DNA from: Candidatus Omnitrophota bacterium
GTDB taxonomy: Bacteria > Omnitrophota > Gorgyraeia > Zapsychrales > Fredricksoniimonadaceae
Reading direction: 5' to 3'
Assembly (NCBI GenBank): GCA_015232565.1
Contig: JADFZK010000001.1
Span: forward strand, 13,160 to 77,159
DNA: 64,000 nt
Within the stretch, counting starts at the first letter, position 1. Each line of letters starts with the position of its first letter. The notes under the pieces were generated by a model. The model did no database searches. It was not told the origin of the DNA and saw only the letters and a program-made list of their open reading frames with translations. The position numbers were made by a program, and so were the translations under genes. Positions 2,955 through 28,904 of the stretch are shown here, one piece after another.

Positions 2955-3416
2955 ATGCGCAACCTGGACTTTTTCGCAATAATATCGCAATTTTCCCACA
3001 ATCGTATCCTGTGGGTCACTGTCCTGGTGTGGATCACCGGCCAGGGCATCAAGATCGTCACCAATCTGTTGAGCGGGCGGCGGTTCAACTTTCGCTGGCT
3101 TATCCGCACCGGCGGCATGCCGTCCAGCCACGCGGCGGGAGTAACGGCTTTGTCGGTGTGTTGCGGCATGGAATACGGCTTTCATTCCGGGATGTTCGCT
3201 TTGGCCGCTATTTTCGCCATGGTCACCATGTTCGACGCCCAGGGCGTGCGCCGTTCGGCCGGTGAGCAGGCCGAGGTGCTCAACAAGGTTATCGATGATA
3301 TGTACTGGCACAAGAAGGTGGATGTGGGCCGTATTCGCGAGTTTGTGGGCCATTCGCCAATACAGGTTCTGGCCGGCCTGATCCTGGGTTTGGGGATGGC
3401 GGTACTTTTGTTTTAA
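2955..3416 (+). CDS. Divergent PAP2 family membrane protein (YuiD/DUF212-like acid phosphatase/haloperoxidase-related)
   Basis: 153 aa with the motifs GGMPSSHAA and FDAQGVRR. A TATAAT hexamer sits at 2937-2942, just upstream. Confidence 0.8.
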   Translation: MRNLDFFAIISQFSHNRILWVTVLVWITGQGIKIVTNLLSGRRFNFRWLIRTGGMPSSHAAGVTALSVCCGMEYGFHSGMFALAAIFAMVTMFDAQGVRRSAGEQAEVLNKVIDDMYWHKKVDVGRIREFVGHSPIQVLAGLILGLGMAVLLF

Positions 3417-3428
3417 TCGGGGGGCGTT

Positions 3429-4223
3429 ATGAACAAAATAATGATGAGTTGGTTCTTGATCCTGGGCGTGGTGTTGGCCGGTTGCAGTAAGGCGGATGGC
3501 ACTGCGGCCAAAGCGCCGGTGGTTCCCGCTGAAGAAGCGTACAAACAGGCCCAGTCCTTACTGGCCGAGGGCAAGGTTCTGGACGCCAAGGCGGCTTTTG
3601 AACAATTGACCGCCGAACATCCGGACTACAAGAATATCGAGCAGGCGCAAAAAGACCTTTACGACCTGAACATGAAGATCATATTCTCGGATATCGTTAC
3701 CCCCAATGCGGTCATCCATGAGGTCGTGGCCGGCGACACCCTGGGCAAGATCTGCAAGAAGTACAACGTGAATATGGACCTGGTAAAGATCTCCAATGGC
3801 ATGAAGAACGAGGTGGTGCGCCTGGGCCAGAAACTGCGGATCTGGACCGGCAAGTTCAATGTTTACGTTGATAAGTCCCAGAACATCCTGATGCTCAAGA
3901 GCGGCGAAGAGGTCGTGAAAGTTTACAATGTGTCTACCGGAGCCAACAATTCAACTCCGGTGGGCGTTTTCAAGATCACTACCCGCCTGGAGAATCCGGT
4001 GTGGTTCAAGGCCGGCGCGGTCATACCTCCGGAAAGCCCGGAGAACGTGCTGGGCACCCGCTGGATGGGTTTCGACAAGGAAGGTTATGGCATACATGGC
4101 ACGGTTGCGCCCGACAAGATCGGCCAGCAGGTAACGGCCGGCTGTATCCGGATGCGTAATGAGGAAGTGGAAGAGCTTTACAAGTTGTTGCCGCGCGGCA
4201 CCGAAGTGACTATTGTTGATTAA
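3429..4223 (+). CDS. Lipoprotein with a LysM domain and an L,D-transpeptidase (YkuD) catalytic domain
   Basis: Lipobox LAGCS; LysM region VVAGDTLGKICKKYNVNMDLVKISNG; YkuD catalytic Cys in the context GIHGT...TAGCIRMRNEEV. Confidence 0.85.
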   Translation: MNKIMMSWFLILGVVLAGCSKADGTAAKAPVVPAEEAYKQAQSLLAEGKVLDAKAAFEQLTAEHPDYKNIEQAQKDLYDLNMKIIFSDIVTPNAVIHEVVAGDTLGKICKKYNVNMDLVKISNGMKNEVVRLGQKLRIWTGKFNVYVDKSQNILMLKSGEEVVKVYNVSTGANNSTPVGVFKITTRLENPVWFKAGAVIPPESPENVLGTRWMGFDKEGYGIHGTVAPDKIGQQVTAGCIRMRNEEVEELYKLLPRGTEVTIVD

Positions 4224-4243: not shown

Positions 4244-5200
4244 ATGAGTTCCATGCAATTTGAGAAGCCTATTGAAGATATTCAGAACAAGATCGCGGAA
4301 CTGCGCAAGCTTTCCAACGGGCATCCGGACTTCACCGCCGAGATCCAGAAACTGGAGCAAAAAATGGGTTCAGTGCGCGAGAAAGTTTACAGCACTCTTA
4401 CCGCCTGGCAGAGGATCCAGATCGCCCGGCATCCCAAACGTCCGTACACCCTGGATTATATCGACCTGATGATGACCGATTTCGTGGAGATCCATGGCGA
4501 CCGGCTTTTTGCCGATGATTTCGCCATGATCACCGGCTTTGCCAGGATCGACGACGATATGGTGGTGGTCATTGGCCAGCAGAAGGGGCGTGATACTTCC
4601 GAGAATGTGAAGCGTAATTTCGGGTGTGCGCATCCCGAAGGGTATCGTAAGGCTATGCGCGCCATGCGTCTGGCCGAGAAATTCGGTCTGCCGGTGGTGG
4701 TTTTTATTGACACGCCCGGGGCTTATCCCGGGATCGGCGCCGAGGAGCGCGGCCAGGCCCAGGCGATCGCCGAGAACCTGCGCGATATGGCGGGGCTCAA
4801 GACGCCGATCATCGCCACGGTAATTGGCGAGGGCGGCAGTGGCGGCGCTTTGGGCGTGGGCGTGGCGGATTACGTGATGATCCTGCAGAACTCATATTAT
4901 TCGGTCATTTCTCCCGAAGGTTGCGCTTCCATCCTGTGGCGCAGCGCCACCAAAGCCCCGGAGGCTTCCGAAGCGCTTAAGCTTACCGGCGAGCATTTGA
5001 TAAAATTTGGCATTGTTGACGAGATCATCCCCGAGCCGCTGGGCGGCGCGCATAACGACCCCCAGCAGGTGGTTACCCTGCTCAAGGCCGCTATCCGCAA
5101 GCAGTTAAAGCGCCTGGCCGGCCTTAAGGAAAAAGAACTGCTCGACGCGCGCTACGAAAAGTTCCGCGCTATCGGCAAGTTCACCACCGTTAAGTCCTGA
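4244..5200 (+). CDS. accA: Acetyl-CoA carboxylase carboxyltransferase subunit alpha
   Basis: 318 aa, AccA pattern throughout: IARHPKRPYTLDYI, FIDTPGAYPG and GEGGSGGAL. Confidence 0.95.
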   Translation: MSSMQFEKPIEDIQNKIAELRKLSNGHPDFTAEIQKLEQKMGSVREKVYSTLTAWQRIQIARHPKRPYTLDYIDLMMTDFVEIHGDRLFADDFAMITGFARIDDDMVVVIGQQKGRDTSENVKRNFGCAHPEGYRKAMRAMRLAEKFGLPVVVFIDTPGAYPGIGAEERGQAQAIAENLRDMAGLKTPIIATVIGEGGSGGALGVGVADYVMILQNSYYSVISPEGCASILWRSATKAPEASEALKLTGEHLIKFGIVDEIIPEPLGGAHNDPQQVVTLLKAAIRKQLKRLAGLKEKELLDARYEKFRAIGKFTTVKS

Positions 5201-5222: not shown

Positions 5223-6308
5223 ATGGTTAACCGGGAGCCGGAAAAGAGCGAGATCAGGGATTTGTCTTTCGAGGAACTCGCCAGCTACCTTGAAAGCATC
5301 AAGGAACCACCTTTCCGGGCCGGGCAGGTTTTTAAATGGCTTTATGAGCAGGGCGTGTGGTCTTTCGCGGACATGAAAAACCTCTCCCAGGGGTTGCGGT
5401 CCCGGCTGGATCAGGACTTCATTCTTAAGCCCAACACTGTTGCGAGCCAGGTCACTTCCCGGGACGGCACCACCAAATTTCTTTTTGATCTCGCTGACCA
5501 CCAGAAAATTGAAACGGTCCTTATTCCCACCGCAGAACGGGTAACGGCTTGTATCTCAACCCAGGCGGGCTGTAAATTCGGCTGTAAGTTTTGTGCCAGC
5601 GGCCTGGGCGGCTGGGAGAGGAATTTAACCAGCGCCGAGATCCTGGACCAGGTTTTACATGTCCGGGGAGTGGTGCGGGGCTTACCACCAGAGGCAAATA
5701 AACGGGAACGGCGGTTGTCGCACATTGTTTTCATGGGGACGGGCGAGCCGCTCGATAACCTGGCCAATGTCCTGAAAGCTATCCGCATTATCAATTCCCC
5801 GCAGGGCCTGAACATCGCCGCCCGGCACATTACTATTTCGACTGTCGGGCTTATACCTAAATTCAAGGAGCTGGCTGAGCAGGGCATTCAGTTCGAGCTG
5901 GCTGTTTCCCTGCACGGTTACGACGACGCTTCCCGCAATGTGCTTATGCCCATCAATAAACAGTATCCGATCAAAGAGCTTATTGCCGCGTGCCGTGAAT
6001 ACATTAAAAGAACCAATCGTCAGGTGACTTTTGAGTACATTCTTATTGCAGGCTTAACCTGCACGGATAAGGCCGCCAGAGAGCTGGGCCGGCTTTTACG
6101 CGGCATGATATGCAAGCTTAATCTCATTCCCTGCAATCCTGTTTCCGAATTCGGCCATCAACCTCCCACCAAAGAACAGATCCGGGCTTTCACGAACGGC
6201 CTGGATGCCGTGGGCGTGCATTACACCCTGCGCCGTCCCCGCGGCCAGGACGTCGCCGCCGCCTGCGGGCAGTTGCGTGCTCTGGCCCGGAAAAGCGTTA
6301 ACACCTAG
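5223..6308 (+). CDS. rlmN: 23S rRNA (adenine2503-C2)/tRNA methyltransferase, radical SAM enzyme RlmN
   Basis: CISTQAGCKFGCKFCASG radical SAM motif, a C-terminal CGQL segment, and a length of 361 aa. Confidence 0.9.
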   Translation: MVNREPEKSEIRDLSFEELASYLESIKEPPFRAGQVFKWLYEQGVWSFADMKNLSQGLRSRLDQDFILKPNTVASQVTSRDGTTKFLFDLADHQKIETVLIPTAERVTACISTQAGCKFGCKFCASGLGGWERNLTSAEILDQVLHVRGVVRGLPPEANKRERRLSHIVFMGTGEPLDNLANVLKAIRIINSPQGLNIAARHITISTVGLIPKFKELAEQGIQFELAVSLHGYDDASRNVLMPINKQYPIKELIAACREYIKRTNRQVTFEYILIAGLTCTDKAARELGRLLRGMICKLNLIPCNPVSEFGHQPPTKEQIRAFTNGLDAVGVHYTLRRPRGQDVAAACGQLRALARKSVNT

Positions 6309-6560
6309 TGCGGTGCGGCAAAGGTGAAGCCACTTCGGTCGCGGATGATCCTTTCCGCCGCGTTCATAGAATTTAGAACGTCGCTCCGGATAAACCAACC
6401 GTCATTTTAACATTCAGCGGGGATTGAGTCGGAAGGCAATAGTTGTAGAAGATCCTACGCGTTAGCCATATCCTCCGCGACGTTCTAAATTCATGAACGC
6501 TAATGTAAACACAGTGGCGGGGATCATATGCGAACGAAGCGGCTTCACCTTTGCCTAGTG
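6306..6560. repeat. Long imperfect palindrome, about 255 bp, starting at the rlmN stop codon. Either a structured non-coding RNA or a MITE-like element.
   Basis: The outer arm 6306-6350 pairs with 6517-6560 at about 34 of 38 positions (core ggcaaaggtgaagcc). The inner arm 6361-6384 pairs with 6477-6499 (cgttcatagaatttagaacgtcgc against gcgacgttctaaattcatgaacg, one indel). No ORF is present. Confidence 0.6.
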
Positions 6561-6576
6561 TGGTGATTTATATATA

Positions 6577-6671
6577 TCTTTACATTTGAATCACCACACT
6601 GGAGCAATGGAGCAATCGAAAATAGAGAAATAATAAAACATTTAGGCTCCATTGCTCTTCAAATGTAAAGA
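6577..6671. ncRNA. Second extended hairpin, immediately upstream of the shared 32-mer and overlapping its 5' half
   Basis: A perfect 14-bp stem (tctttacatttgaa, 6577-6590, against ttcaaatgtaaaga, 6658-6671) plus an inner 12-bp stem (6602-6613 against 6646-6657) around an A-rich loop. 6557-6566 (agtgtggtga) can alternatively pair with 6591-6600. Confidence 0.45.
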
Positions 6672-6686
6672 AGCGTTAGAGACACT
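6655..6686. repeat. 32-nt element ctcttcaaAtgtAaagaagcgttagagacact (copy 2 of 2)
   Basis: Matches 2784-2815 at 30 of 32 positions. Its 5' half forms the 3' arm of the 6577-6671 hairpin. Confidence 0.5.
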
Positions 6687-6848
6687 ACACTAGTACCATC
6701 GATATCAATGCTATAATTGTGCAGCGATCAATCTTTTCAGTGGCGAAACTGGCAATAATGAATATAATGTGCTATATTTTCGTCATGTTCACATTCTTGG
6801 ACATTGGTGTCTGTTTAAATACGTAATAATCTAATAAGGAGTTGGGCG

Positions 6849-9800
6849 ATGAATGTTAATCATTATAAGGGAACTGTTGTTTACCGTTCTATCTGCAGTT
6901 TGCTGATTCTTAGTTTTATTTTCTCCGCGGTTGTCCCGCCGCGGAGTGGGTGGGCCCAGACGGTTCTTAATTTGCCGGCGCCGGGCACCATGGTTATGGC
7001 CAGCCCGGCTTTTATGCCAGTGCTGATCAAGGGGCTCAAGGTTCATCCGGAAAATCCTTTACTGTTCGATTTTATTCTGGATACCGGTTCGACTAAGCTG
7101 GCAACCAATGAAAAGCCCGGCCTGGATGTGAATGGCCCTGAATTCAAGGCCGAGACCCAAAAGCTCATTAAATATTTTCTGGCTTCGCTCACTATTAAGG
7201 AAGACGACCTGTGGGTTAATCTTTCGCCTTTTGAGCGTGACCGCATGATCGCCGCAGACCTGGGCCAGACCGAACTGGGCCGCGATATGCTGGCGCAGGA
7301 TTATATGCTCAAGCAATTAACCGCGTCCATGATCTATCCCGAGAAAGAGCTGGGCCAGGCTTTCTGGGCCAAAGTTTATGCCCAGGCCCAGGAACAGTTT
7401 GGCACCACCGACGTGCCAGTGGACACTTTTAACAAAGTCTGGATCGTAGCCGATAAAGCCCAGGTAATGGAGCACAATAACGCAGCCTATGTAGTGGGTT
7501 CCCATTTAAAAGTAATGCTGGAAACAGATTATTTAGCGACGTCGACCAGTGCAATGCCAACCCGGGGACATGATGCCCCGCCAGCGGATACCAATGAGCG
7601 GGGCTTCGTGTCCCCCCGCCGGTTGCCAACCTCTCAACCAACGAATGTGAAAGCAACCCAGGTCTCAACCCCAACGCCAAACCCCACAAAAGTTCCAAAC
7701 GACATAAACGACACAAACAATACAAATGCGACAACCCCCGAAAACAACATCGCCAAAAACATCTTACGCGAGATCGTGCTCCCGATGATCGAGAAAGAAG
7801 TGAATGAAGGCCAGAATTTTGCCCCGTTGCGCCAGATGTTCTTCTCGATGATCATGGCTTCGTGGTACAAGCAGGCTTTAAAAGGCGCGCTTTTGAACCA
7901 GGTGTATACCAACAAAGCCAAAACTGGCGGGGTGCAGGTTGACGATCAGTCGGCCAAAGAAAAGATCTACGAACAATATCTTCAGGCGTATAAGAAAGGT
8001 GTATTTAACTACATTAAAGAAGATGCCGGGCTGGCGCTTAACCCCGGCGCGGATCCCGAGGCCCAACAGTCAATTCCCCGAAAGTATTTCTCCGGCGGGC
8101 TAATAGTAATGAAGAATTTTGCGGGCAAAGGTCCCACCATTGTGCCGTTTGACGGCGCCGCCGTCGTTAGGGACTTTAGTGCGGCTGTCAATGTGCGGGC
8201 CAGGATGGATCAGTCTCAGAGCATAGACCGTGAAACTTTGGAAAGTGTTCAGATCAGCTTAAATGAATTGATGGGAAAACCTGTTACTCGTGACGTATTG
8301 CAAAATGAACTTACGTCAAAAGCCCGTCTTTCTGGAGTGTCTGTGGATGATGGCATTATAAAAGGCGTAAAAGCAGGCACAATAGTAGTTCGCGAGTCGG
8401 GCATTGAGTATGGTTTTACGCAGGATGAATTGAACAAGCTTGCCGGAAACCCGAACCAGATGACTTTCACGGTTATGTTGTTGTCAAAAGGGAAGCTGGC
8501 GTCATTTTTGGTTGTTATACCCAGAGGCACGGCGGTGGATATTGCCACAATAGCTTTGGATGAAGCCTTCAAGAAGTATGATAATGCAAGAATGTCGCTG
8601 GAGCAAATACAGAGCGGTGGCCGTGGATATACTGAGGAGCAGCAAAAGCCGGGCAGGAAAAAAGATCAGGATCTTCAAGATGAGAGGGATAAGATGGCTG
8701 AGGGTTTAGCAGAAATGATTCCTAGAGTTAAAGTTGTTTTATCTTTGGGAGGCTCAGTTGCTTGGAACATTAGGGATATCGTCGGCGAAAAGGTAAAGCC
8801 TTATCTGTCATGCTTTGTAACGTTCACCCGGAAAGATGGGCGGGTTTATGACATTACGGTTAATGGGGAAAAAGTAGTTGTTCCAATTTCGAGGCACTTG
8901 CATCCATATTGGGGAAATTTAGTTGCCATGCATCCTGATTTACGCCCGCTGGAGCATGTAAAATTGAGCGTGGCGCTGGCTGGTTATGCTGTTACTGAGC
9001 ACGATATTAATGACATCACGACCGACGAGTCGCAGAAATCCTTAATAGATGCAGGTTACAATAAGCTGACGGAAGGCCAGTCGTTGAGGTTCGCTTTAAA
9101 ACCGGGGACAATGGGTATAATGCTGGATATTGAACGAAGTGGGAAGACCAGGCGGGAAAGAGTTTATTTGTCGGTTAATAACCATTACCAGTTAATTGTA
9201 GCGTCCGAGTTGATCGGAGGAGTGCGTCAGGTTACTTTGGATGCATATGGGTTTGTCGATTTGGATGCGCTTCTGGAATCGGATGTGAGTGTGGAAATCC
9301 AATGGAATAATGGCGAAATTGTTGTGCATAGTTCCCGGAGATCGGCAGATCCGCTCTTGGTTAAAAGAAGCGTGTTTTTCCCGGATAATAATTCTGGAGA
9401 ACAGGAAGTTATTGTTTCAAGCAGTAGTGGTAAATCTGAGCGGACAATTATTAACGATGATTTCCGGGAAGGCAAGGGTAATGAATACCAGGTGAACGGT
9501 GCAAAAGTGCTTCTCGTGTCTAGTGGTTCAAATCCGGATAAACGACATGTTGTAGTAAGCGCGTTCGCAGACGTTAAGCCGGGTTCAGGTCAGGAATTTA
9601 CTGTTCAACTTGTTGATCCTTCCATGCAAACCTGGGAGTCGCTGGCTCTCGAGATCCGCGCGCAATTTCTTGCCGCCCTCAAGAGCGATCTGGAGCGCGC
9701 GCTACCAGGTGATATTACGAACATTGGGTTGAGAGGACGTTATGATTACGAAGGCTATGGTATAGCGTTTCCAGCTATTGCTAAGCTTATCCAAGAAGGA

Positions 9801-10628
9801 ACGGTTGCAGCTGATAGTTTATTCAACGCCATAACAGAGTATATTGTTAAACAACATCCAGTGGAAGGTGAGCAATCCATCAGAATTCGGTGGCCAGCAA
9901 AGGACGAAGGAAAGTCGGGCATAAGGCAGTGGGAAAGAGGGATTAGCATGTTGGAAGGTGGGAATCTTAGTCCAAGAGTCTGGACAGGAACGAGTGGGTC
10001 TGATGGACAAGTGGCCATGCTATGGGAGAATATCGCGGATGATGCTCCTTTGCAATACGTGAAAGACTGGCTGGCGAAAGAATCTGCCAAACAGCCGACC
10101 GCCGCTACTGCAGGTGTAGAAGTTAGTCCAGTGGGAAAAGCCGCATTCTCTGGTTCTAATGCTCAACCATTAGTTTTTCAAGAGTACCAGGATATGTTTA
10201 GAGCGTACTCAAATTCGGATGGGATCCGTAGGAAGTGGTTAAGAATTACAACCAAAAATAATGAGGTTGTTAGAGTTCAGGTCATCGGAATGAATGATAA
10301 TTGGATCTTTGGCTTGGATGATAAGCGAGAAAGAGTATATATTACTAGAAACGACTTCAAAAGCGCCACCAGTGATCCTTCTGCGAATCAGGCTTTTTCT
10401 CCCGGCGGTATCGAGCTTAATGCCAAAAGAATGGGTTTGGAGGTGGCAAAGGACGGCAAAGGTGTTAATATGACTATTGACCCGGCTATGGTCGCCGATT
10501 TTGAGCGCGGGGATTTCTCCGGCGTGGTTCCGGTTATTCTGCAGATCGTGCCGATCCGTAATCCGTTGGTTACTTTGGGCCTGGGGGGCGATGCGCCGGC
10601 TGAGAAACTGATACAGGGAAAAGCATGA
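6849..10628 (+). CDS. Very large secreted or membrane-anchored protein of unknown function (1259 aa)
   Basis: Strong AAGGAG ribosome-binding site 7 nt upstream. N-terminal hydrophobic signal/anchor (ICSLLILSFIFSAVV). Low-complexity Thr/Pro/Asn-rich linker (TPTPNPTKVPNDINDTNNTNATTPENN). A single LDTGST motif. I recognise no domain. Confidence 0.85.
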   Translation: MNVNHYKGTVVYRSICSLLILSFIFSAVVPPRSGWAQTVLNLPAPGTMVMASPAFMPVLIKGLKVHPENPLLFDFILDTGSTKLATNEKPGLDVNGPEFKAETQKLIKYFLASLTIKEDDLWVNLSPFERDRMIAADLGQTELGRDMLAQDYMLKQLTASMIYPEKELGQAFWAKVYAQAQEQFGTTDVPVDTFNKVWIVADKAQVMEHNNAAYVVGSHLKVMLETDYLATSTSAMPTRGHDAPPADTNERGFVSPRRLPTSQPTNVKATQVSTPTPNPTKVPNDINDTNNTNATTPENNIAKNILREIVLPMIEKEVNEGQNFAPLRQMFFSMIMASWYKQALKGALLNQVYTNKAKTGGVQVDDQSAKEKIYEQYLQAYKKGVFNYIKEDAGLALNPGADPEAQQSIPRKYFSGGLIVMKNFAGKGPTIVPFDGAAVVRDFSAAVNVRARMDQSQSIDRETLESVQISLNELMGKPVTRDVLQNELTSKARLSGVSVDDGIIKGVKAGTIVVRESGIEYGFTQDELNKLAGNPNQMTFTVMLLSKGKLASFLVVIPRGTAVDIATIALDEAFKKYDNARMSLEQIQSGGRGYTEEQQKPGRKKDQDLQDERDKMAEGLAEMIPRVKVVLSLGGSVAWNIRDIVGEKVKPYLSCFVTFTRKDGRVYDITVNGEKVVVPISRHLHPYWGNLVAMHPDLRPLEHVKLSVALAGYAVTEHDINDITTDESQKSLIDAGYNKLTEGQSLRFALKPGTMGIMLDIERSGKTRRERVYLSVNNHYQLIVASELIGGVRQVTLDAYGFVDLDALLESDVSVEIQWNNGEIVVHSSRRSADPLLVKRSVFFPDNNSGEQEVIVSSSSGKSERTIINDDFREGKGNEYQVNGAKVLLVSSGSNPDKRHVVVSAFADVKPGSGQEFTVQLVDPSMQTWESLALEIRAQFLAALKSDLERALPGDITNIGLRGRYDYEGYGIAFPAIAKLIQEGTVAADSLFNAITEYIVKQHPVEGEQSIRIRWPAKDEGKSGIRQWERGISMLEGGNLSPRVWTGTSGSDGQVAMLWENIADDAPLQYVKDWLAKESAKQPTAATAGVEVSPVGKAAFSGSNAQPLVFQEYQDMFRAYSNSDGIRRKWLRITTKNNEVVRVQVIGMNDNWIFGLDDKRERVYITRNDFKSATSDPSANQAFSPGGIELNAKRMGLEVAKDGKGVNMTIDPAMVADFERGDFSGVVPVILQIVPIRNPLVTLGLGGDAPAEKLIQGKA

Positions 10629-14879: not shown

Positions 14880-15417
14880 ACGGGCACTTCTTTTTTAGAA
14901 GGGGTGGTTGCATGTTCTGATCTTCTGATTGGTCATCACGGGATATTTTGTATTGTTTTGGCCGAAAAGGGCATGAAATATCTTTAAGAATTTGCCGGTT
15001 CATGATCCGAGTCGAGACATTGATGATGTTACACTGAATGGCCTACTATTTCGATGGCCAGGATGTTTTTTTAAATTTATTAGAATTCCCGGAGTTAATC
15101 AAGTCATTTTATTGAATCTTATTGTGTTCTGGCGATTGTTTTCAACGGCTTGCGTCAATCTGACGTGACACTTCTTTAGGAGCTGATCTATTACTATTCG
15201 GCAGGCCAGGGTGAGTGTTGATTAGTTTGACAACTTGCAGACAATTGTTTCGATCCTGGAGCACAACACCACTTTGGGTTAACAAGAATGCGTTGATCAG
15301 AAGTGCTGTTTTTAATTGGGAATTTGACAAAGCGTCTTTGGTATAGCAATATTGGTTATTATGTATGACCAATTTGGACAGCAATTTCGTCGGTTATAGA
15401 TATTCGGGACATGAATT

Positions 15418-15440
15418 GCGGCGGACTTTATGTCCGCCCG
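15418..15440 (+). other. Small stem-loop gcggcGGACtttatGTCCgcccg (second copy of the motif at 12345-12367)
   Basis: A 7-bp stem around a TTTAT loop. It differs from copy 1 by a compensated C:G to G:C swap. It lies in the AT-rich leader region of the glycan island. Confidence 0.4.
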
Positions 15441-15633
15441 GGTGGTTATAATTACGGACAAGGACAATCTGGCCCGGGGCATTTCCGGCCGGACAGCGGT
15501 CAATATGGATCTGCCGCTTAAGGCCTTAATGTTGGGTGAGAAATAGCGCGACATAAGCAGGCACGTGTCCCCTGAATTGGAACGTTAACACATCGAATTC
15601 GCTGGAATTAAAAAAGCATTAACCCTAAAGAAT

Positions 15634-23114: not shown

Positions 23115-23202
23115 TTCTCACTGAGCCTGTCGAAGTTTCTTTTGATCTTTTATTCCTCTTTAGATGGAAAATAGCGTTAGATCTACTACACAAGAGATCG
23201 CT

Positions 23203-28493: not shown

Positions 28494-28573
28494 AACGCGA
28501 CATGTAAATGAAAGGTATATGTGTTACGGCCTATTCGGGTGGTAAAGGCCTGGAGGTTTTCGACCGGGATTAG

Positions 28574-28870
28574 TTTGTAGTTAAGGTGCCGCTGGGAGCG
28601 GAAGGCGTTGATCCGGTGTCCGGGATCAATGTTGCTGACGGGCATGGCGCAGTTCAGCAGACTACCCAGAAAACTACCCAGAAAACTACCCGGCATATAC
28701 TCGCTCTTATGAGGAAGGATCCGCATATTACCCGACAGGAATTGGCGAAAGTTCTGGCCTTGACCGATGAAGGTATCAAGTATAACTTGCGGAATATGCA
28801 AAGGGACGGGATCTTAAAGCGCGTGGGCGCCGACAAAGGCGGGCACTGGGAAGTTCTGGTTAAGGAATAA
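28574..28870 (+). pseudogene. C-terminal remnant of a Schlafen/AlbA_2-HATPase_c_4-type regulator (TTQK repeat plus HTH)
   Basis: The reading frame is closed by TAG at 28571 and no N-terminal domain lies upstream. It encodes TTQKTTQKTT from a 12-nt tandem repeat at 28661-28693, followed by the typical C-terminal HTH ILALMRKDPHITRQELAKVLALTDEGIKYNLRNMQRDGILKRVGADKGGHWEVL. Confidence 0.45.
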
Positions 28871-28904
28871 GGGCGGGTTAAACGAACAGAAAGGATGGCC
28901 GGGT

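Follow-up and report, generated by a model that had tools for sequence, protein, structure and literature searches.

Two adjoining palindromic elements in the rlmN 3′ spacer of an uncultured Omnitrophota bacterium, plausibly nested relics of a MITE-like insertion and a repeat doublet

Small non-coding repeat elements of the MITE type are known from several bacteria and include the Correia elements of Neisseria, ERIC/IRU of enterobacteria, RUP of Streptococcus and the IS231-derived MIC elements of Bacillus. REP, BIME and REPIN sequences, which RAYT transposases mobilise, comprise repetitive extragenic palindromes and inverted doublets of these. We analyzed a 64-kb stretch of DNA from an uncultured Omnitrophota bacterium (hereafter the window) in which the spacer downstream of rlmN contains two adjoining palindromes, E1 (6317-6555) and E2 (6555-6693), that invite comparison with these systems. 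Like bacterial MITEs, E1 is small and non-coding, carries terminal inverted repeats and a short flanking target repeat, lies in a spacer, at the end of a gene, and would form a hairpin in read-through transcripts; unlike most of those described, it has a longer inverted repeat (arms of 76-87 nt) and is known from one copy. E2 shares with REP/REPIN sequences the inverted doublet that forms a long hairpin, the singlets in other spacers, the extragenic location and the co-orientation with genes. It departs from them in that its 48-nt unit is not itself palindromic, that three copies occur in 64 kb, that the window contains no RAYT gene, and that in the left half of the doublet 11 nt have been replaced and another 11 nt inserted. 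A third comparison is with intrinsic terminators and hairpins stabilising 3′ UTRs. E1 and E2 share their position, next to the stop codon that closes a co-directional block of genes, but the two elements lack a U tract, and their stems exceed by a factor of 5-10 the length of the 10-20-bp hairpins found after genes in related Omnitrophota loci.

The identity of rlmN is backed by the Pfam domains RlmN_N and Radical_SAM. The gene ends with a TAG stop codon at 6306-6308, 9 nt before the start of the large inverted repeat, and closes a co-directional block made of DUF212, YkuD, accA and rlmN. A spacer of 540 bp separates it from a gene coding for HQL20_00080, a 1259-aa product (AAGGAG at 6838-6843, ATG at 6849) with a signal-like hydrophobic segment at its N terminus, which is probably a secreted protein. 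We found no canonical terminator and no U tract between the two genes, and transcription reading through from rlmN into the spacer therefore stays plausible. The sole sigma-70-like promoter match of the spacer (CTGGCA-18-TATATT with TG, 6749-6778, + strand) lies outside both elements, 3′ of E1 and E2 and 5′ of the 1259-aa gene, and constitutes weak evidence because one site was found against 1.4 expected by chance. Base composition within the spacer is uneven, with a GC content of 49.8% for E1, 34.5% for E2 and 35.5% for the rest, compared to 50.4% for coding DNA and a mean of 44% for other spacers. E1 thus looks foreign to its surroundings, because its GC content matches that of coding DNA, unlike that of E2 and the remainder of the spacer.

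E1 is a non-coding palindrome of 239 bp, about two thirds of which is inverted repeat. An inverted-repeat search followed by alignment of the arms placed the left arm, a terminal inverted repeat starting with GGCAAAGGTGAAGCC, at 6317-6392 (76 nt) and the right arm, in which 15 nt are inserted as compared with the left one, at 6469-6555 (87 nt), on either side of a non-palindromic core of 76 nt (6393-6468) devoid of promoter-like site and ORF. Of the 91 columns in the alignment of the two arms, 65 match; there are 7 mismatches and 3 indels of 3, 15 and 1 nt, and the blocks that align without gaps show 79% and 88% complementarity. At the outer ends the match is exact, the last 15 nt of the right arm being fully complementary to 6317-6331. 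The terminal 21-mer occurs in the window only at the two ends of E1, when no occurrence is expected by chance, and nothing similar to either arm was detected in the rest of the window. An earlier note made from the sequence had described here a near-perfect 255-bp palindrome with arms at 6306-6384 and 6477-6560. The large inverted repeat is indeed present, but it is not near-perfect, its arms have the limits given above, and the segment 6306-6316, counted in the note as part of the palindrome, is the left copy of a direct repeat that flanks it.

This direct repeat, TAGTG(C/T)GGTG, measures 10-11 bp and is located exactly at both ends of E1. The left copy, TAGTGCGGTGC (6306-6316, + strand), is a candidate target-site duplication that includes the rlmN stop TAG, and the right copy, TAGTGTGGTGA (6556-6566, + strand), coincides with the left terminus of E2. 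Written as TAGTGCGGTG(C) and TAGTGTGGTG(A), the two copies are identical at 9/10 positions (6556-6565 for the right copy) or 9/11. Simulations with random flanks, using offsets of ±2 nt and a lenient score, give p ~0.002 or lower for a direct repeat at the ends of E1. The right copy takes part both in the outer stem of E2 and in an alternative hairpin at 6557-6600, and for this reason the left copy is best explained as a duplication produced upon entry of E1. Substitutions affect 7/72 aligned positions of the E1 arms and 1/10 positions of the direct repeat, an about equal divergence that fits a single old event. A duplication of 10-11 bp would fit IS4-like transposases, but the terminal sequence of E1 gives no transposase-family assignment. 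The picture is complicated by a 12-nt motif, CTAGTGTGGTGA, of which the spacer contains four copies in the order + + − −, so that the apparent duplication around E1 could belong to a larger repeat architecture rather than being a simple target-site duplication. The third copy (CCAGTGTGGTGA, − strand, 6591-6602) is the bulge that splits the 26-bp stem of E2; a model with two elements leaves it unexplained, and it counts against such a model.

E2 is an AT-rich composite palindrome of 139 bp with a predicted folding energy of −51.6 kcal/mol (z = −8.4). Its outer stem (6555-6565 / 6683-6693) pairs at 10/11 positions, the lone mismatch being a G-U pair on the + strand, and is followed inward by an 11 × 11 internal loop. 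The inner stem comprises 26 perfect bp broken by an 11-nt bulge, in the form of a 14-bp stem (6577-6590 / 6658-6671) and a 12-bp stem (6602-6613 / 6646-6657), and closes on a 32-nt loop. The second hairpin reported in the earlier note, with its perfect 14-bp stem and inner 12-bp stem, is thus confirmed, as is the alternative pairing that it proposed between 6557-6566 and 6591-6600, which forms part of a competing hairpin with arms 6557-6576 / 6581-6600 (85% complementary, inverted-repeat search). This hairpin rivals the 14-bp stem for 6577-6590 and is the form adopted in the minimum free energy fold of the whole region. As a mild oddity, the inner 26 bp of E2 are perfect even though E2 should predate E1; the probability of observing no substitution at ~10% divergence is ~0.07.

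A repeat search revealed that the right half of E2 is a 48-nt unit (6646-6693) with two further copies in the window. One is a solo copy 85% identical to it, located in the spacer between the DUF2442 and DUF212 genes (2775-2822), and the other is a diverged copy 65% identical to the 2775 copy, in the spacer after a radical-SAM/SPASM gene (23147-23194), recovered with an nhmmer E-value of 0.022 over 787 kb using a model built from the other two only. In the 64-kb window, all three copies are intergenic, lie on the + strand and share the orientation of the genes. E2 is part of a dispersed repeat family, of which no copies were found in 723 kb of related Omnitrophota loci; a conserved 19-mer of the unit gave no match in viral contigs. 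The solo copies fold like shuffled sequences (z = −0.27 and −0.05). We also considered the copy at 2775 as the end of a DUF2442 cassette, which was ruled out since it has no inverted partner on the other side, and the unit as a sigma-70, sigma-54 or ECF promoter, none of which fit upon inspection by eye.

The region as a whole folds far more stably than chance predicts. The comparison with shuffled controls suggested in the earlier note yields −176.7 kcal/mol for the RNA of 6300-6700 against −98.1 ± 5.1 for the shuffles (z = −15.4). For E1, the RNA of the + strand reaches −124.0 kcal/mol (z = −9.5) and that of the − strand −122.9 kcal/mol (z = −10.0), and E1 as single-stranded DNA gives z = −11.6. 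E1 is a palindrome at the DNA level rather than at the RNA level, because both strands fold equally. The 787 kb of Omnitrophota DNA made up of the window and 83 loci contain no long local palindrome other than that of the E1/E2 region. Its lack of an ORF, already remarked from the sequence, was borne out: the longest stop-free stretch of the structured region spans 64 codons, and the concatenated six-frame translation had no match among 5.8 billion proteins. Searched against 1.84 billion representatives, the 64-codon frame matches only three tandem-repeat junk ORFs at ~25 bits per repeat, with E-values that are inflated because these repeats were summed. The covariance-model search that the earlier note had recommended assigned the region to no family. 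With Rfam at a permissive E-value, 5800-7300 attracted only microRNA-precursor models (19-27 bits against gathering scores of 52-84), and Rfam at the gathering score combined with a tRNA scan retrieved nothing over the whole window. A candidate antisense pairing of the apical loop of E1 (6407-6419) with the start-codon region of the 1259-aa gene (6847-6859), matching at 12/13 positions, was dismissed, as shuffled sequences did at least as well in 627/1000 and 1279/2000 cases.

Further copies of E1 were sought widely. E1 is present in a single copy in the window, and an exact scan for its 21-nt terminus gave no match in species-representative genomes (596 Gb) or in JGI metagenomes. The two-ended E1 pattern with a gap of 198-228 nt had no match in metagenome contigs. 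By blastn, E1 was found neither in plasmids and phages nor in 83 related loci, and the spacer had no match in 81 related loci. When two mismatches were allowed, the terminal 15-mer was no more frequent in the 723 kb of related loci than chance predicts. Nine matches to an E1 18-mer in viral contigs all fall inside coding sequence, do not extend and were attributed to chance. Pfam detected no transposase, recombinase or Y1 transposase (RAYT) in the window. A transposase with ends matching those of E1 is not known, and the window and the collections searched yielded no parent insertion sequence with GGCAAAGGTGAAGCC ends. Comparison with relatives shows a variable rlmN 3′ flank. At 79% identity of rlmN, the next gene overlaps the stop codon, leaving no spacer; at 82% (ERZ1426822, a contig of 4039 bp) and 85% (ENA ERZ1426827, a contig of 4681 bp), spacers of 143 bp and 644 bp, respectively, follow rlmN; at 75% and 73%, the genes downstream are unrelated. 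Among the relatives with readable DNA, none yielded a sequence homologous to E1 or E2. We consider the 540-bp spacer to be lineage-specific because the spacer is absent, shorter or differently flanked in the relatives at 82%, 79%, 75% and 73%.

We favor, with little more than even confidence, the interpretation that the region consists of MITE-like and repeat-doublet relics, that is, two palindromic elements, one of which inserted into the end of the other. Most likely, it is ordinary genomic debris in an uncultured Omnitrophota bacterium and not a new RNA gene. The MITE interpretation raised in the earlier note agrees with the small size of E1, its lack of coding capacity, its terminal inverted repeats and the candidate target-site duplication at its exact ends, the motif of which occurs twice more, inverted, in the spacer. 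The search for numerous dispersed copies, the test named in the earlier note, gave one copy of E1 in the 64-kb window and none in the collections searched. According to our model, E2 would have come first, as a hairpin-forming inverted doublet of the 48-nt unit that adjoined the rlmN stop, its terminal CTAG giving or overlapping the TAG. The MITE-like E1 would then have transposed into the left terminus of E2 and doubled 10-11 bp of target, TAGTGTGGTG(A), the copies of which would be those now seen on its two sides, the left one still supplying the stop codon of rlmN. The pre-insertion site would have read ...ACC TAG TGTGGTGA... or ...ACC TAG TACC.... Subsequent drift would account for 7 substitutions and 3 indels in the E1 arms and for 1-2 substitutions in the duplication. 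We infer the mechanism, transposition, as well as the succession of events from palindromes, a bracketing direct repeat and a repeated 48-nt unit that are directly visible in a non-coding segment whose large palindrome folds equally on both strands and for which no related sequence was found in the relatives and collections searched. Any RNA that continues past the end of rlmN would finish with highly stable hairpins, which could stall or process the RNA and may thereby insulate rlmN from the next gene.

Other origins were considered. The palindromes may have formed in place, by local inverted duplication and template-switching (quasi-palindrome extension or correction) during replication, involving no mobile element and no dedicated function, which we judge possible but rather unlikely. 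Such an origin is consistent with the single copy of E1 in the window and all collections searched, with the aspect of the spacer as a tangle of overlapping palindromes sharing four copies of one 12-nt motif, and with the 11-nt bulge of E2, which nearly copies the complement of the adjoining arm, a product typical of template switching. It leaves the duplicated arm with no visible local source, because neither arm of E1 resembles other sequence of the window, does not predict a direct repeat at the exact ends of E1, and is difficult to reconcile with the GC content of E1, so unlike that of the surrounding spacer. The occurrence of the 48-nt unit in two distant spacers further calls for some mobility or recombination. 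Mobility of another kind is invoked if the four CTAGTGTGGTGA copies reflect two independent sequence-specific insertions into both arms of one ancestral hairpin at the rlmN stop, E1 in the left arm and 6603-6681 in the right one. This scenario, whose logic is comparable to that of REPIN/RAYT systems or of insertion sequences homing into repeats, appears improbable to us; if true, it would reveal an undescribed target-specific, hairpin-homing repeat family in Omnitrophota, in which the 48-nt unit would be the commonest member, and a second role as transcript insulators at gene ends would be conceivable for the hairpins.

A functional structured RNA, acting either as a stabiliser, terminator or processing site in the 3′ UTR of the rlmN operon or as a leader of the 1259-aa gene through the choice between 6557-6600 and 6577-6590 / 6658-6671, seems equally doubtful. 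The very stable folds, the mutually exclusive stems, the perfect inner stem of E2 with a G-U pair as sole outer mismatch on the + strand, the position directly 3′ of a stop codon where the lack of a canonical terminator makes read-through likely, and the gene orientation of all three 48-nt copies would all suit such an RNA. The regulatory reading of the earlier note is nevertheless not supported, in view of the equal folding of both E1 strands, of indels of up to 15 nt between its arms, of Rfam matches that amount to microRNA noise below the gathering score, and of the failure to find kin sequence in readable relatives, one close relative having no spacer at all. Moreover, the promoter-like site of the downstream gene comes after the hairpins, a U-tract terminator is lacking, and neither the folding of the solo 48-nt copies nor the pairing of the E1 loop with the start-codon region surpasses that of shuffled sequence. 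We regard it as very improbable that recombination at the inverted repeats inverts a phase-variable promoter segment 5′ of the gene for the large secreted protein. Perfect 12-bp and 14-bp repeats do lie 5′ of a gene with a signal-like hydrophobic N terminus, but the sequence enclosed by the repeats is itself palindromic as far as a 32-nt loop, which describes a hairpin rather than a unique invertible core, E1 and E2 have no internal promoter-like site, the arms of E1 are long and imperfect, and the window encodes no recombinase. Whole-genome amplification is known to generate fold-back chimeras, and the sequence comes from a MAG (locus tags HQL20_), yet an assembly or amplification artefact is hardly to be expected here: the arms of a chimera would be identical and copied from adjacent sequence, whereas those of E1 differ by 7 substitutions and 3 indels and match nothing else in the window, and the flanking direct repeat has itself diverged.

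The nested-relic interpretation would leave the broad understanding of gene regulation as it is. If it is correct, E1 and E2 would provide the first small non-autonomous repeat element that we found described for Omnitrophota, a full-text literature search having returned no paper linking Omnitrophota with miniature inverted-repeat elements. It would also imply that fold stability alone is a poor ground for annotating a regulatory RNA. For the organism and its relatives, the 3′ flank of rlmN would be a rearrangement hotspot in the lineage, and E1, E2 and the 48-nt unit would be markers for strain variation and for assembly quality in uncultured genomes.

In this stretch from an uncultured Omnitrophota bacterium, the locus runs DUF212 (2955-3416), LysM-YkuD (3429-4223), accA (4244-5200), rlmN (5223-6308; Pfam RlmN_N and Radical_SAM), a 540-bp spacer and the gene of a 1259-aa protein (6849-10628), which has no Pfam domain and matches HQL20_00080, a hypothetical protein of Candidatus Omnitrophica bacterium, at 100% identity in NCBI; the best-named rlmN relatives are Omnitrophica too. 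Two structures, the palindrome E1 (6317-6555, 239 bp) and the AT-rich hairpin E2 (6555-6693, 139 bp), occupy the first 385 bp of the spacer, and we lean, by a modest margin over even chance, toward reading the region as a synteny break point with relics of a MITE-like element and of a repeat doublet. The spacer is lineage-specific: blastn found no match to it in 723 kb of related loci, the rlmN relatives at 82% and 85% identity have spacers of 143 and 644 bp, in the 79% relative the next gene, for a membrane protein, overlaps with the stop of rlmN, and the downstream genes of the 75% and 73% relatives are unrelated.

Repeat search of the window and comparison of fold energies with shuffles bear out the presence of hairpins after rlmN, and no ORF was found in the structured stretch, as the earlier note had stated. 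Folding is far beyond chance throughout, with z = -15.4 for RNA of 6300-6700 (+), -9.5 (+) and -10.0 (-) for E1 RNA and -11.6 (+) for E1 DNA (6306-6566), and -8.4 (+) for E2 RNA (6555-6700). The same search recovered the perfect 14-bp stem (6577-6590/6658-6671), the inner perfect 12-bp stem (6602-6613/6646-6657) and the alternative pairing (6557-6576/6581-6600) of the second hairpin. The description of the palindrome as near-perfect is overstated, because in a gapped alignment of the arms 65 of 91 columns match, against 7 mismatches and three indels (3, 15 and 1 nt); the arms begin at 6317 and not at 6306. E1 comprises a 76-nt arm, a 76-nt core and an 87-nt arm, with an outer block of 48 nt (6317-6364/6508-6555, 79%) and an inner block of 24 nt (6369-6392/6469-6492, 88%), and its two ends agree exactly over the outermost 15 nt, GGCAAAGGTGAAGCC. 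It is the sole local inverted repeat at E <= 1e-3 (blastn) in 787 kb of Omnitrophota DNA, made up of the window and 83 fetched loci, in which the remaining palindromes are hairpins of 20-60 nt. One related locus, L062, carries a perfect palindrome with 26-bp arms (6662-6751; arms 6681-6706/6723-6748) about 0.7 kb downstream of its rlmN, unlike E1 and E2 in sequence.

Just outside E1 lies a direct repeat, TAGTGCGGTG(C) at 6306-6316 and TAGTGTGGTG(A) at 6556-6566, matching at 9/10 positions, with the rlmN stop codon inside the left copy; its score was equalled in 0.2% of trials with simulated random flanks, under a lenient score that allowed small offsets. We interpret it as a target-site duplication because the two copies of these 10-11 bp lie exactly one E1 length apart. 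The arms differ from each other by substitutions at about 10% of positions (7/72), as do the two repeat copies (1/10), which fits one old event. Also counted for a mobile element is the GC content of E1 (49.8%), like that of coding DNA (50.4%) and above the 34.5% of E2 and the 35.5% found in the remaining spacer. E2 would be the older structure, and E1 would later have entered its left terminus, copying 10-11 bp native to the terminal stem of E2. With E1 and one copy of the repeat taken out, the sequence reads AAC ACC TAG TGTGGTGA, so that the insertion would have left the rlmN reading frame and stop unchanged. The C-terminus of RlmN gives no date for the insertions because residues past the conserved AACGQLR vary in all relatives. 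The RlmN of the window also has seven inserted residues, VVRGLPP, next to the conserved LHVRG on its C-terminal side (about codons 150-156), lacking in its six closest homologues.

The left terminus of E2 doubles as the right copy of the direct repeat. Alone, E2 folds as a single long hairpin: the outer stem has 11 bp (10/11) and is followed by an internal loop of 11 x 11 nt, and a bulge of 11 nt interrupts the perfect 26-bp stem further in, which ends in an AT-rich loop of 32 nt. Given that E2 should be older than E1, 26 perfect inner base pairs are a mild oddity, with a chance of about 0.07 at 10% divergence. Its ends, C-TA-GTGTGG...CTACAC-TA-G, can be read either as CTAG within the inverted repeat or as TA duplicated over 2 bp, and the single copy fits both. 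Solo units matching the right-hand 48 nt of E2 (6646-6693, +) stand at 2775-2822 (+; 85% identity) and, with greater divergence, at 23147-23194 (+), so that E2 is an inverted doublet of a unit also existing as singlets. The third copy was found at E = 0.022 in the 787 kb using a profile from the first two alone, which found none in the 83 related loci (723 kb). Each of the three copies lies between genes and on the + strand, which codes for almost all genes in the window; the solo copies fold no better than shuffles, and no inverted partner of either was found. Copies 1 and 3 each start 33 nt past the upstream gene's stop codon. The solo unit at 2775-2822 sits at the right edge of a pair of small genes, the last of them for a DUF2442 protein (2410-2742), within the ChlI-like to DUF212 interval (1952-2954); the syntenic locus of a 75% relative (L001 5449-5689) lacks the pair.

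A functional structured RNA is not supported. No Rfam family was found, U-tract terminators are absent, the arms of E1 differ by large indels, and related sequence was not found in readable relatives. E1 RNA folds equally on the two strands (-124.0 and -122.9 kcal/mol), as predicted by a DNA palindrome and not by an RNA selected on one strand. The sole promoter-like site (6749-6778) is downstream of the hairpins, and most shuffles equal or better the 12/13 complementarity of the apical loop of E1 to the start-codon region of the large gene. An invertible promoter is unlikely, as the segments between repeats are themselves palindromic and contain no promoter-like site, and an assembly fold-back is made unlikely by the divergence of the arms.

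A purely local origin by template switching is a serious rival, favored by E1 being single-copy. No second copy was found in any collection searched, a count that within the source genome covers the 64-kb window, so that a low-copy family elsewhere in it would escape. The terminal 21-mer does not recur in the window and has no match in species-representative genomes or JGI metagenomes, the two-ended gapped pattern has none in metagenomes, and E1 was not found in plasmids or phages; viral contig matches to an 18-/19-mer of E1 lie in coding sequence and were dismissed as chance. Six-frame translations of the region have no relatives among 5.8 billion proteins, and neither a recombinase nor a transposase, of the Y1 type or any other, is encoded in the window. 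The spacer holds four copies of the 12-nt motif CTAGTGTGGTGA (6305, 6555, 6591-6602 and 6682-6693) in the order + + - -; the third copy, the site of the 11-nt bulge in E2, resembles a template-switch product, and the overall pattern may instead reflect an ancestral hairpin that received one insertion in each of its arms.

The 1259-aa protein has a paralogue in its own genome, HQL20_08260, which it matches over its N-terminal ~418 aa (66% identity) and C-terminal ~60 aa (62%), the central part being unrelated. More than 4000 database proteins match roughly one and the same third of it, with fusion partners as diverse as phosphoglucomutase, phosphoglycerate kinase, response-regulator, GGDEF and pentapeptide domains; this third looks like an N-terminal module that large Omnitrophota proteins share across the phylum. 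The last 50 kb of the window (~13000-64000), with nearly all genes on one strand, make up a large cluster for the biosynthesis of surface glycans and nonulosonic acids, with NeuB, UDP-GlcNAc 2-epimerase, two CMP-transferase-type genes, DegT aminotransferases, many methyltransferases, a Wzx-like flippase and several proteins of 500-760 aa without Pfam match. Two other long spacers lie at 14880-15633 (754 bp) and 28494-28904 (411 bp), the latter with 51.6% GC, above the spacer average.

Read as MITE-like and repeat-doublet relics, E1 and E2 would be an additional case of a known type of element. If the density of three copies per 64 kb held genome-wide, the 48-nt unit would be a high-copy family.
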